NCBI RefSeq assembly: GCF_024223415.1
Contig: NZ_CP100500.1
Length of the DNA stretch: 64,000 nucleotides
Origin: Escherichia coli
GTDB lineage: Bacteria > Pseudomonadota > Gammaproteobacteria > Enterobacterales > Enterobacteriaceae
Direction: 5' to 3' (one strand)
In this document: piece by piece, positions 738 through 32,020 of the stretch
Position numbering within the stretch: the first letter of the stretch is position 1
How the letters are laid out: every line of letters begins with the position of its first letter
Made by a program: the position numbers and the translations under genes
The notes under the pieces: model-generated
Told to the model about the DNA's origin: nothing
Databases searched by the model: none
What the model saw: the letters and a program-made list of their open reading frames with translations, nothing else

Positions 738-3050
738 ATGCCTCGCTTGTTAACCAAACGCGGCTGCTGGATAACGCTGGCAGCTGCGCCCTTTCTCCTT
801 TTTCTTGCAGCGTGGGGAGCAGATAAACTCTGGCCTCTACCGCTGCATGAAGTCAATCCCGCACGAGTGGTCGTGGCGCAGGATGGTACGCCGCTCTGGC
901 GCTTCGCCGATGCTGACGGCATCTGGCGTTATCCTGTAACAATCGAAGATGTTTCTCCACGTTACCTTGAAGCGCTGATCAATTATGAAGATCGCTGGTT
1001 CTGGAAGCATCCGGGGGTGAATCCATTCTCGGTGGCGCGCGCAGCATGGCAAGATCTCACTTCGGGACGGGTTATTTCCGGTGGCAGCACGCTCACTATG
1101 CAGGTTGCTCGTCTGCTTGATCCTCACCCCAAAACATTTGGCGGCAAAATTCGCCAGCTCTGGCGCGCGTTGCAACTGGAGTGGCATTTGTCTAAGCGTG
1201 AAATTCTGACCTTGTATCTTAACCGCGCTCCGTTTGGCGGTACGTTGCAGGGGATCGGTGCGGCAAGTTGGGCTTATCTCGGAAAGTCGCCTGCGAATTT
1301 AAGCTATTCCGAGGCGGCAATGCTGGCGGTTTTGCCGCAAGCGCCCAGCCGTCTTCGCCCGGATCGTTGGCCGGAGCGTGCCGAAGCCGCGCGTAATAAA
1401 GTGCTCGAACGGATGGCCGTGCAAGGTGTGTGGTCCCGTGAGCAGGTAAAAGAGTCAAGGGAAGAACCCATCTGGCTGGCACCCCGACAAATGCCGCAAC
1501 TTGCACCGCTGTTTTCGCGCATGATGCTCGGTAAAAGCAAAAGCGACAAAATCGTTACTACGCTGGATGCCGGTCTTCAACGACGTCTGGAAGAACTGGC
1601 GCAAAACTGGAAAGGACGTTTACCACCGCGCAGCTCACTGGCGATGATCGTGGTTGATCATACCGATATGCGTGTTCGCGGCTGGGTGGGATCGGTAGAT
1701 CTCAACGATGATTCACGCTTTGGTCATGTTGATATGGTCAATGCGATCCGATCGCCAGGGTCGGTGCTCAAACCGTTTGTTTACGGTCTGGCGCTGGATG
1801 AAGGCTTGATCCACCCGGCATCACTGCTGCAAGACGTCCCCCGGCGCACCGGTGATTATCGACCAGGTAACTTTGATAGCGGTTTTCATGGCCCGATCAG
1901 CATGAGCGAGGCGCTGGTGCGCTCGCTGAATTTACCTGCTGTGCAGGTACTGGAAGCCTATGGACCGAAACGGTTTGCGGCAAAGTTACGCAATGTTGGA
2001 TTGCCGTTATATTTGCCCAACGGTGCTGCGCCGAATCTTTCGCTCATTCTCGGCGGCGCTGGTGCAAAACTGGAAGATATGGCGGCAGCGTATACCGCGT
2101 TTGCTCGCCACGGCAAGGCAGGCAAATTGCGCTTACAGCCTGACGATCCGCTGCTTGAACGGCCTTTAATATCGTCGGGGGCTGCGTGGATCATTCGCCG
2201 GATTATGGCTGATGAAGCGCAACCCTTGCCGGATGGTGCCTTGCCGCGTGTCGCTCCACTGGCATGGAAAACGGGCACCAGCTATGGCTATCGTGACGCC
2301 TGGGCGATTGGGGTTAACGCTCGCTATGTCATTGGGATCTGGACTGGCAGACCGGACGGCACGCCCGTTGTTGGTCAGTTTGGTTTTGCCAGCGCCGTAC
2401 CATTGTTGAATCAGGTCAATAATATCTTACTGTCGCGCAGTGCTAATCTGCCGGAAGACCCGCGCCCGAACTCAGTCACTCGTGGCGTTATCTGCTGGCC
2501 GGGCGGACAGTCTTTGCCGGAAGGTGACGGTAACTGTCGCCGCCGCCTGGCAACCTGGCTGCTGGACGGGAGTCAGCCGCCAACTCTATTACTGCCGGAG
2601 CAGGAAGGCATTAATGGCATTCGTTTCCCCATCTGGCTGGATGAAAATGGCAAACGTGTTGCCGCTGATTGCCCGCAAGCGCGACAAGAAATGATAAATG
2701 TCTGGCCGCTACCGCTGGAACCCTGGTTGCCCGCATCAGAACGTCGCGCTGTGCGCTTACCACCGGCCTCGACAATTTGCCCGCCATACGGTCACGATGC
2801 CCAGCTCCCGCTGCAGCTGACAGGCGTTCGCGATGGCGAGATTATTAAACGTTTACCGGGCGCAGCGGAAGCGACTTTGCCGTTGCAATCAAGTGGAGGG
2901 GCAGGTGAACGCTGGTGGTTTCTGAATGGCGAACCGTTAACTGAACGCGGGCGCAACGTGACCCTGCATTTGACGGATAAAGGTGATTATCAATTGCTGG
3001 TGATGGATGACGTAGGGCAAATCGCGTCAGTACATTTTTCATTTCAGTGA
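738..3050 (+). CDS. pbpC: Penicillin-binding protein 1C (peptidoglycan glycosyltransferase)
   Basis: 770-aa ORF with ATG at 738 directly after the yfhM stop; length and sequence match PbpC. Confidence 0.9.
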   Translation: MPRLLTKRGCWITLAAAPFLLFLAAWGADKLWPLPLHEVNPARVVVAQDGTPLWRFADADGIWRYPVTIEDVSPRYLEALINYEDRWFWKHPGVNPFSVARAAWQDLTSGRVISGGSTLTMQVARLLDPHPKTFGGKIRQLWRALQLEWHLSKREILTLYLNRAPFGGTLQGIGAASWAYLGKSPANLSYSEAAMLAVLPQAPSRLRPDRWPERAEAARNKVLERMAVQGVWSREQVKESREEPIWLAPRQMPQLAPLFSRMMLGKSKSDKIVTTLDAGLQRRLEELAQNWKGRLPPRSSLAMIVVDHTDMRVRGWVGSVDLNDDSRFGHVDMVNAIRSPGSVLKPFVYGLALDEGLIHPASLLQDVPRRTGDYRPGNFDSGFHGPISMSEALVRSLNLPAVQVLEAYGPKRFAAKLRNVGLPLYLPNGAAPNLSLILGGAGAKLEDMAAAYTAFARHGKAGKLRLQPDDPLLERPLISSGAAWIIRRIMADEAQPLPDGALPRVAPLAWKTGTSYGYRDAWAIGVNARYVIGIWTGRPDGTPVVGQFGFASAVPLLNQVNNILLSRSANLPEDPRPNSVTRGVICWPGGQSLPEGDGNCRRRLATWLLDGSQPPTLLLPEQEGINGIRFPIWLDENGKRVAADCPQARQEMINVWPLPLEPWLPASERRAVRLPPASTICPPYGHDAQLPLQLTGVRDGEIIKRLPGAAEATLPLQSSGGAGERWWFLNGEPLTERGRNVTLHLTDKGDYQLLVMDDVGQIASVHFSFQ

Positions 3051-17078: not shown

Positions 17079-18691
<1,613 letters not shown>

Positions 18692-23603: not shown

Positions 23604-23813
23604 AAAAGGTTCCTTGAAGTATGTCCCACGCTGTGGACGGTACTTACATTAAGGCACAACAGGACAAAATGGTCAATTCTTCGTTATGTAAAAAAGCGTC
23701 AGTGGATACATATTTTAATGTTATGGAAGTTAATTTAATTATTTACAATGATGATGTAATAATGATGAATTAACATGATAAACGTAATAATTCATTAATC
23801 AGGGTTATTTTGT

Positions 23814-23827
23814 TTGATATATATCAA
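23814..23827 (+). promoter_or_regulatory. FNR consensus site TTGAT-atat-ATCAA upstream of pdeF
   Basis: 10 of 10 match to TTGATnnnnATCAA, about 135 nt upstream of the pdeF ATG. Confidence 0.55.
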
Positions 23828-23954
23828 TTGGAACTTTCATATGACACTTAGAATCAATGCTCTCTATAGTGATGAATAATCATCATTCGAAGTCAGGTGG
23901 GATGCCTGTCTGAATACACCTCCTTCAGGATGTGGGGGATTCTGCTGAGCATCT

Positions 23955-26198
23955 ATGAAACTGAATGCAAATTATATAAAAATACGTGATAAATGGTGGG
24001 GGCTTCCGCTGTTCCTGCCTTCTTTAATCTTGCCCGTTTTCGCCCACATTAATACTTTCGCGCATATTTCTTCCGGTGAGGTTTTTCTCTTTTATCTGCC
24101 TTTGGCACTGATGATCAGCATGATGATGTTTTTCAGCTGGGCGGCATTGCCAGGGATCGCCTTAGGGATTTTTGTCCGCAAATATGCAGAGCTTGGTTTT
24201 TACGAAACGCTCTCATTAACGGCTAATTTTATTATCATTATCATTCTCTGTTGGGGCGGTTACAGGGTCTTTACTCCCCGGCGTAACAACGTTTCACATG
24301 GTAATACCCGTTTAATTTCCCAGCGTATATTCTGGCAGATTGTGTTTCCTGCAACGCTGTTTCTGATACTTTTCCAGTTTGCTGCGTTTGTAGGATTACT
24401 GGCGAGCAGAGAAAATCTGGTCGGCGTCATGCCTTTTAACCTCGGGACCTTAATCAATTATCAGGCCTTACTGGTGGGCAATCTGATTGGTGTCCCGCTG
24501 TGCTACTTCATCATTCGGGTAGTTCGAAATCCGTTTTATTTACGTAGTTATTATTCGCAATTAAAACAGCAGGTTGATGTCAAAGTCACCAAAAAAGAGT
24601 TCGCGCTCTGGCTACTGGCATTAGGTGCTTTACTATTGCTGTTATGCATGCCGTTAAATGAAAAAAGCACAATTTTTAGTACCAATTATACCTTGTCATT
24701 ATTGCTGCCCCTGATGATGTGGGGAGCGATGCGCTATGGTTATAAGCTGATTTCACTGCTCTGGGCGGTCGTGTTGATGATCAGCATCCACAGCTATCAA
24801 AATTACATTCCCATTTATCCTGGCTATACCACGCAGCTGACCATAACCTCCTCAAGTTATCTGGTATTCTCTTTTATTGTCAATTATATGGCTGTACTGG
24901 CAACCCGTCAGAGAGCGGTAGTCAGACGTATTCAACGGCTTGCGTATGTGGACCCGGTGGTTCATCTGCCAAATGTTCGCGCCCTGAATCGCGCGTTGCG
25001 TGATGCCCCCTGGTCTGCGCTTTGTTATTTACGCATCCCTGGCATGGAAATGCTGGTTAAAAACTATGGCATCATGCTGCGGATTCAATACAAGCAAAAA
25101 CTTTCTCACTGGCTGTCACCATTGCTGGAACCGGGTGAAGATGTTTATCAGCTTTCGGGTAACGATCTCGCGCTGCGACTGAATACAGAATCGCACCAGG
25201 AGCGCATTACCGCACTGGATAGCCATCTCAAGCAATTTCGTTTCTTTTGGGATGGCATGCCGATGCAACCGCAGATTGGCGTCAGTTACTGCTATGTGCG
25301 CTCGCCAGTGAATCATATCTACCTGCTGCTGGGAGAGCTAAATACGGTCGCCGAACTTTCCATCGTGACCAACGCCCCGGAAAATATGCAGCGTCGCGGG
25401 GCAATGTATTTGCAACGCGAATTGAAAGATAAAGTCGCGATGATGAATCGACTACAGCAGGCGCTGGAACACAACCATTTTTTCCTGATGGCCCAGCCGA
25501 TTACCGGTATGCGTGGTGATGTTTACCATGAAATTCTTCTGCGCATGAAAGGTGAGAATGATGAACTGATCGGCCCCGATAGCTTCTTGCCGGTCGCGCA
25601 CGAATTTGGTTTATCGTCGAGTATCGACATGTGGGTCATTGAGCATACGCTGCAATTTATGGCTGAAAACAGAGCGAAGATGCCCGCTCACCGTTTTGCT
25701 ATTAATCTGTCTCCAACCTCGGTATGCCAGGCTCGTTTTCCTGTTGAAGTCAGTCAGCTGCTGGCTAAATATCAGATTGAAGCGTGGCAACTTATTTTTG
25801 AAGTCACCGAAAGTAATGCTCTGACCAATGTTAAGCAGGCGCAAATCACCTTGCAGCATCTTCAGGAATTAGGCTGCCAGATTGCGATTGATGATTTCGG
25901 CACCGGCTACGCCAGCTATGCGCGGCTTAAAAATGTGAATGCCGATCTGCTTAAAATTGACGGCAGTTTTATCCGCAATATTGTGTCAAATAGTCTGGAT
26001 TATCAGATAGTGGCATCGATTTGCCACCTGGCGCGAATGAAGAAAATGCGGGTAGTGGCAGAGTACGTTGAAAACGAAGAGATCCGCGAGGCGGTGCTCT
26101 CTTTGGGGATCGATTATATGCAGGGTTATCTTATTGGTAAGCCGCAGCCGTTAATTGATACGTTGAATGAAATCGAACCCATTCGCGAAAGTGCCTGA
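23955..26198 (+). CDS. pdeF: Cyclic di-GMP phosphodiesterase PdeF (YfgF), MASE1-GGDEF(degenerate)-EAL
   Basis: 747-aa ORF with multi-TM N-terminal half and C-terminal EAL-type region. Confidence 0.9.
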   Translation: MKLNANYIKIRDKWWGLPLFLPSLILPVFAHINTFAHISSGEVFLFYLPLALMISMMMFFSWAALPGIALGIFVRKYAELGFYETLSLTANFIIIIILCWGGYRVFTPRRNNVSHGNTRLISQRIFWQIVFPATLFLILFQFAAFVGLLASRENLVGVMPFNLGTLINYQALLVGNLIGVPLCYFIIRVVRNPFYLRSYYSQLKQQVDVKVTKKEFALWLLALGALLLLLCMPLNEKSTIFSTNYTLSLLLPLMMWGAMRYGYKLISLLWAVVLMISIHSYQNYIPIYPGYTTQLTITSSSYLVFSFIVNYMAVLATRQRAVVRRIQRLAYVDPVVHLPNVRALNRALRDAPWSALCYLRIPGMEMLVKNYGIMLRIQYKQKLSHWLSPLLEPGEDVYQLSGNDLALRLNTESHQERITALDSHLKQFRFFWDGMPMQPQIGVSYCYVRSPVNHIYLLLGELNTVAELSIVTNAPENMQRRGAMYLQRELKDKVAMMNRLQQALEHNHFFLMAQPITGMRGDVYHEILLRMKGENDELIGPDSFLPVAHEFGLSSSIDMWVIEHTLQFMAENRAKMPAHRFAINLSPTSVCQARFPVEVSQLLAKYQIEAWQLIFEVTESNALTNVKQAQITLQHLQELGCQIAIDDFGTGYASYARLKNVNADLLKIDGSFIRNIVSNSLDYQIVASICHLARMKKMRVVAEYVENEEIREAVLSLGIDYMQGYLIGKPQPLIDTLNEIEPIRESA

Positions 26199-31774: not shown

Positions 31775-32020
31775 AGACTGCTTTACACAACCTTTTTGCA
31801 CGTCTTTTCCCCAGGCGCGCGGCGAAAGAAGACTTGTGCCAGGGCAAAGGTTAGTTTTCGGATGGAATAATCTTCTTTCATAACCATTTGAATATAAAAT
31901 AACTTTATCTCAAACCGTTATCATTTTGACTAAAGTCAACGAAAATAATATTGCCGCCTTGAAGAAAGGAGGTATAATCCGTCGATTTTTTTTGTGGCTG
32001 CCCCTCAAAGGAGAAAGAGT

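Follow-up and report, generated by a model that had tools for sequence, protein, structure and literature searches.

The window, a 64-kb stretch of Escherichia coli DNA, carries on its forward strand pdeF, also called yfgF (23955..26198, +), which encodes a 747-aa MASE1/degenerate-GGDEF/EAL c-di-GMP phosphodiesterase according to the list of open reading frames, RefSeq and Pfam (MASE1, 3.5e-70; EAL, 1.5e-70). We treat it as the regulated gene. The 351-bp intergenic region that separates pdeF from the divergent yfgG (23604..23954) falls to a GC content of 20–28% between 23650 and 23850, and is thus as long and as AT-rich as the first-pass annotation had described it. Within this region, TTGATATATATCAA at 23814..23827 reads TTGAT-ATAT-ATCAA, a palindromic box assigned to neither strand, which matches the FNR half-site consensus at 10/10 positions, exactly as had been claimed; its centre (23820.5) lies 134.5 nt upstream of the pdeF ATG at 23955, where a distance of about 135 nt had been given.

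The 1,001-bp stretch around the box is present in 5,423 of 5,426 complete E. coli genomes, and in these 5,423 the RefSeq annotation reads yfgG, hypothetical protein, pdeF; the 81-bp core promoter is found at an identity of at least 95% in 5,403 E. coli genomes. The window belongs to a non-K-12 E. coli lineage and is 100% identical to SCU-316 and others over 1,001 bp. Its FNR box and -10 element are identical to those of K-12 and UM146, with differences among the three confined to the spacer and to the DNA downstream of the -10. The locus, the 14-mer, the -10 and the neighbor yfgG are also those of the K-12 yfgF promoter (Lacey, Partridge & Green 2010, Microbiology 156:2873, as relayed in PMC3718329; Myers 2013, PLoS Genet 9:e1003565), from which a single base differs over a 357-bp intergenic alignment (A/T at 23832, in the spacer); otherwise, there is no difference of substance. 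The hypothetical protein between the two genes is a 50-aa PGAP prediction (WP_000017552.1 and variants) at 23621..23773 (+), overlapping the yfgG promoter. We rejected it as a probably spurious gene, since Pfam gives no match for it, the curated K-12 annotation does not list it and the reading frame is not preserved outside Escherichia; its weak tblastn matches reflect the conserved DNA of the yfgG promoter.

An exact TTGAT-N4-ATCAA occurs once within the 64-kb window, at the box itself. In dinucleotide-preserving shuffles of the window (n = 100), which served as the chance model, the expected number is 0.09 per 64 kb, and 9 of the 100 shuffles contain at least one exact match; at up to two mismatches, the window holds 52 matches to the FNR consensus versus 31.8 expected. 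One exact match is therefore only mildly unlikely by chance, and the motif count by itself is weak evidence; the box draws its real support from its location, from its conservation and from ChIP. The counts leave some room for a chance palindrome, and the relatedness of FNR and CRP sites for a site of CRP, or of another regulator, in place of FNR. The CRP core TGTGA-N6-TCACA is not present at the box, where the core reads TTGA/TCAA, as it does in each of the 43 homologous promoters compared below, and a direct FNR signal has been recorded at this very sequence, so that we regard this reading as negligibly probable.

FNR occupancy and expression of pdeF

Published ChIP data document occupancy of the site by FNR in vivo under anaerobiosis. 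Myers 2013 (PMC3688515) lists a yfgF/yfgG FNR peak centered at 2627146, which was called by MOSAiCS, NCIS and CisGenome from ChIP-seq and by CMARRT from ChIP-chip (Table S5), and which an earlier FNR ChIP-chip study had missed (Table S5, column g). The same work places the exact TTGATATATATCAA at 2627088, at the ChIP-seq peak, as an inverted repeat TTGAT-N4-ATCAA with a PatSer score of 16.08 and without overlap with H-NS, IHF or Fis enrichment (Table S6); this score ranks near the top for bound sites, with yfiD at 17.25 and nirB and narK at 17.06. K-12 coordinates (U00096.2) were converted as window = 2650915 − K-12 coordinate, a mapping validated on three Table S6 sites (window 23827; 31939, upp/purM; 18675, guaB/xseA) and on NC_000913.3 gene coordinates. 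The two FNR peak summits map to 23769 and 23815, that is, on the box or within ~50 bp of it. The first-pass annotation had named published FNR ChIP data as a check on its proposal, and the exact 14-mer indeed lies under a peak that three ChIP-seq callers and ChIP-chip detect (PMC3688515). Two further ChIP-bound FNR sites of Table S6 fall in the window, TTGACTAAAGTCAA at 31926..31939 in the upp/purM intergenic region and GTGAGCGAGATCAA at 18662..18675 in the guaB/xseA intergenic region; both stand in Table S9, among targets whose expression in glucose minimal medium did not depend on FNR.

Expression of yfgF is maximal anaerobically and activated by FNR according to the account of Lacey 2010 given in Lacey et al. 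2013 (PMC3718329), and in the RegulonDB curation FNR appears as an activator of yfgF in anaerobic conditions (PMC4207228); both sources uphold the statement, made in the first pass, that the phosphodiesterase is expressed anaerobically under FNR control. PdeF protein is undetectable in aerobic cultures, a result that its authors credit to anaerobic induction (Sarenko et al. 2017, PMC5635695). In anaerobic glucose minimal medium, on the other hand, FNR is bound and yfgF expression shows no FNR-dependent change (Table S9, where the other known regulators of yfgF are given as "unknown"; PMC3688515). FNR-dependent expression, which the earlier proposal required, thus stands for K-12 as relayed in PMC3718329 and does not extend to that medium.

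A ChIP peak without a change in expression, of which Myers 2013 reports many (PMC3688515), is also what would be seen if FNR were bound yet functionally silent, drawn to a high-affinity consensus match in AT-rich DNA. We consider this very unlikely, given the FNR-dependent anaerobic expression that PMC3718329 relates for K-12, the constraint on the promoter described below and the 4.3-fold anaerobic induction of yfgF that is uncovered by deletion of hns and stpA (Table S11, PMC3688515). Loss of both genes also raises the average of the FNR ChIP-chip peak significantly, from 0.35 in the wild type to 1.68 in the double mutant (Table S7, PMC3688515). H-NS/StpA therefore limit FNR occupancy and pdeF output, directly or indirectly, in keeping with the very high AT content of the DNA immediately upstream of the box. 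These observations show that FNR binding is necessary and, under some conditions, not sufficient for expression, and they do not contradict a class II mechanism. In the original yfgF study, expression is reported to peak in stationary phase and at 28 °C.

Geometry of the pdeF and yfgG promoters

The -10 hexamer of the pdeF promoter, TAGAAT (23849..23854, +; named as the -10 in PMC3718329), follows the FNR box after a spacer of 21 bp (23828..23848, +), which puts the transcription start at about 23862 (+) if the box centre is -41.5; this position is arithmetic from the published -41.5 and the sequence. The account of Lacey 2010 in PMC3718329 describes the yfgF promoter as class II and FNR-dependent, with the box at -41.5 and TAGAAT as its -10, and Myers Table S9 holds one known yfgF TSS, credited to Lacey 2010 (PMC3688515). 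A usable -35 hexamer is absent, the TTGGAA upstream of the -10 being only 15 bp from it, as expected for an activator-dependent promoter. A consensus scan also picks out, 16 bp further downstream than the conserved -10, a sigma70-like promoter, ATGACA-18-TATAGT (10/12; 23841..23870, +), which could, judging from its sequence, serve as a weak FNR-independent start. We rejected it as the main promoter, since its hexamers are Escherichia-specific whereas across genera TAGAAT/TAAAAT keeps a constant distance to the box.

The textbook class II FNR-activated promoters with a consensus box at -41.5 include yfiD, nirB, narK and dmsA. Like them, the yfgF promoter has a single box, which would be centered near -41.5, and a reasonable -10, it lacks a functional -35 and it is reported to be activated anaerobically, and its PatSer score of 16.08 is comparable to those of yfiD, nirB and narK (Table S6, PMC3688515). 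Unlike them, it is occupied without FNR-dependent change in anaerobic glucose minimal medium, it gains occupancy and induction when hns and stpA are missing, and it has no NarL/NarP or other co-regulator listed (Table S9, "Unknown"; PMC3688515).

The divergent yfgG promoter lies at 23636..23677 (−), with a -35 TTGACC at 23677..23672, a -10 region at about 23654..23649 and a start at about 23640. These assignments follow a mapped TSS at 2627275, inside a region bound by RNA polymerase-sigmaS (PMC4447067; window 23640), and a very strong anaerobic sigma70 ChIP-seq peak at 2627279 (Myers Table S1, PMC3688515; window 23636); at the pdeF promoter, the same table lists no separate sigma70 peak. The -35 TTGACC and the -10 region are invariant across genera, as are the blocks GGTCAATT and ACATTAAGGCACA of this promoter. 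With intergenic DNA common to both genes, an FNR peak that Myers labels yfgF/yfgG, a strong anaerobic sigma70 peak on the yfgG promoter and ~2.2-fold higher yfgG expression under anaerobiosis in the wild type (Table S12, ratio 0.45; PMC3688515), the FNR site might control yfgG in addition to pdeF or instead of it. We judge this unlikely. With its centre ~180 bp upstream of the yfgG start, the box falls beyond the positions that are usual for class I/II activation, which makes yfgG an unlikely direct FNR target; the target named by Myers is yfgF (Table S9), while neither yfgG nor yfgF is among the FNR-dependent operons of Table S8 (PMC3688515); and the conserved feature of the site is its fixed 21-bp spacing to the pdeF -10.

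The DNA between the two promoters holds further conserved AT-rich blocks at 23680..23760, e.g., ATGTAAAAA..CGTCAG, AATGTTAT and TATTYACA. ArcA input via AT-rich repeats in this interval was considered and dropped, as the supplements of an ArcA ChIP study contain no yfgF or yfgG entry; this absence also speaks against ArcA as an alternative occupant of the FNR box. The suspicion, voiced in the first-pass annotation, that the intergenic region may hold additional regulatory input has proved justified in three respects: the H-NS/StpA effect, the shared divergent yfgG promoter and the highly conserved leader of pdeF.

Conservation of the promoter across genera

The FNR site at pdeF has been published since 2010, with ChIP-seq support since 2013, and the box adds no new biology. 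What our analysis adds to the published work is the cross-genus selection on the promoter elements, together with a pointer to an apparently uncharacterised conserved leader. To compare the promoter, we assembled two sets of loci. The first was selected by protein: a PdeF scan of species-representative genomes yielded 16 loci that cover most or all of the protein, from several Escherichia (92–97% protein identity) and from Enterobacter, Phytobacter, Kluyvera and another Enterobacteriaceae genome (56–62%). The second came from metagenome contigs scanned with the leader motif CAGGTTGGATGCCTGYCT, so that the promoter itself was no selection criterion; 35 of the 80 metagenome loci examined are genuine pdeF leaders, in which GCATCTATG and a PdeF-like open reading frame, with very diverse N-termini, come after the motif.

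A box with 0–1 mismatches is present 131–150 nt before the ATG in 14/14 protein-selected loci with upstream DNA, and likewise, with 0–1 mismatches, in 34/34 metagenome loci with enough upstream sequence. All 43 unique pdeF promoters, from at least five genera, have a -10 that starts exactly 21 bp after the box, most often TAAAAT (34), with TAGAAT in 6, TACAAT in 2 and TATAAT in 1; TTGA/TCAA and TA-AAT are invariant throughout these 43, though the promoters compared are related and the counts are not independent events. In an alignment of 33 sequences, 8/10 half-site positions and 5/6 positions of the -10 are invariant, versus 0/21 in the spacer, 0/4 in the box centre and 0/40 upstream. In the same alignment, the half-sites reach a mean pairwise identity of 0.92, compared with 0.40 in the spacer, whose GC content ranges from 24% to 67%.

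Invariant elements at a fixed spacing, set against a scrambled spacer, are the hallmark of a working promoter that depends on an activator, and the box, the -10 and the distance between them are under strict purifying selection in Escherichia, Enterobacter, Phytobacter, Kluyvera and many uncultured relatives. FNR control of pdeF is therefore ancestral in this group, and not a K-12 peculiarity. The pattern is also hard to account for if FNR binding were functionally silent: half-sites, -10 and spacing stay invariant while their surroundings diverge and PdeF itself is only 56–62% identical. The half-sites tolerate the variants TTGAC and GTCAA, but the T that sets FNR apart from CRP, which prefers GTGA, never changes; conservation of TTGA/TCAA, and not of GTGA/TCAC, fits FNR rather than CRP. 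Salmonella is absent from the genome-scan set, as the peptide patterns did not pick it up. For Salmonella Enteritidis yfgF, an FNR box at -41.5 (TTGAC--ATCAA) and a -10 TACAAT have been reported (PMC3718329), variants that lie within the range found here in other genera; for the Salmonella locus tag STM2503, the literature searched held nothing on FNR beyond that paper.

One E. coli strain, L73 (L003, NZ_CP033378.1), carries an IS1 of the IS1X2 family at 1734..2510, corresponding to window 23830..23838. The element sits between the FNR box and the pdeF -10 and is flanked by a 9-bp target duplication, GGTACTTTC. FNR control of pdeF has probably been lost in this strain, because the IS1 puts about 0.8 kb between the site of the activator and the core promoter.

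We are almost certain that the published class II activation by FNR at -41.5 is the best explanation of the pdeF site. FNR-dependent anaerobic expression, the promoter class and in vivo occupancy come from the literature; the geometry and the strict cross-genus conservation of half-sites, -10 and 21-bp spacing come from the sequences compared here. Under anoxia, FNR with its [4Fe-4S] cluster would dimerise and bind TTGAT-N4-ATCAA centered at -41.5, where it would cover the position of the -35 element that the pdeF promoter lacks. From there, it would recruit and activate sigma70 RNA polymerase at the -10 TAGAAT, through activating contacts that we infer from the general class II mechanism of FNR and CRP. 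Transcription would start at about 23862 and yield a pdeF mRNA with a leader of ~93 nt. Oxygen would destroy the cluster, FNR would fall off and the promoter would become silent, and H-NS/StpA and growth conditions would further limit output. The site ties oxygen sensing by FNR to the turnover of c-di-GMP, by way of which it bears on motility, on the properties of the cell surface and on the tolerance of peroxide in anaerobic enterobacteria.

The conserved pdeF leader

The only potentially new item at the locus is the 5' leader of pdeF (~93 nt; 23862..23954, +), which lies outside the FNR finding proper and is characterized here by cross-genus alignments and per-sequence folds. In the alignments, it is far more conserved than the promoter spacer. 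It contains a near-invariant block, GTCAGGTGGGATGCCTGTCT (23894..23913, +), and ends in an invariant GCATCT directly before the pdeF ATG (leader 3' end, +). Across genera in which PdeF is only 56–62% identical, GTCAGGTKGGATGCCTGYCT and GCATCT(ATG) remain near-invariant; in 12 protein-selected genomes, 14/18 positions of GTCAGGTKGGATGCCTGYCT and 9/9 of GCATCTATG are invariant, a count confined to these genomes since both motifs were selection criteria for the metagenome loci, where their invariance does not count.

The near-invariant block is predicted to form a hairpin, hairpin A (CAGGU-GGGAU-GCCUG in the window, 23896..23910, +; CAGGU-KGGAU-GCCUG across genera), with GGA in its loop. Its AUG opens a 3-codon upstream open reading frame in E. 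coli (ATG CCT GTC TGA, 23905..23916), which is longer or otherwise terminated in other genera. A second predicted hairpin, hairpin B (CCUCC-UUCAGGAUGU-GGGGG, 23921..23940, +), has a CCC/GGG core with an extension that differs by genus and is predicted in most of the 33 sequences; a GGA is present in this segment in 33/33 of them and lies in the loop of the minimum free energy fold in 28/33. Hairpins A and B are 25–30 nt apart. In addition, GGAUGC of the near-invariant block can base-pair with the invariant GCAUCU that precedes the AUG; this pairing, which could possibly sequester the start region, is part of the minimum free energy fold of the E. coli leader.

Support for structure in the leader is limited. 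Folded as a single sequence, the E. coli leader does not stand out (z = -0.5), and mean z-scores are only -0.9 and -1.4. On the leader alignments, hairpin A is the sole structure that RNAalifold returns, with 0 compensatory pairs, and this hairpin is uninformative on covariation because it is invariant. A comparison of the leader with Rfam returns no family and only noise (E > 1). As for a possible regulator, the two GGA-loop hairpins suggest CsrA: the GGA in the loop of hairpin A is invariant, while no GGA overlaps the Shine-Dalgarno region. The supplements of E. coli CsrA CLIP-seq contain no yfgF entry, which says little because the cultures were aerobic, when pdeF is not transcribed.

The pdeF leader is not described in the literature searched. 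We think it possible, though rather doubtful, that the segment at about 23894..23954, with its GGA hairpins, upstream open reading frame and GCAUCU pairing, constitutes an undescribed, genus-spanning element of post-transcriptional control. If so, the leader could gate translation of the transcript made under FNR, e.g., via CsrA or alternative pairing, and such gating would help to explain FNR occupancy without constant PdeF expression. At the other end of the leader, a further hairpin (23868..23887, +, in the predicted fold) recurs close to the 5' end in the predicted folds of nearly all taxa, each time with unrelated sequence.
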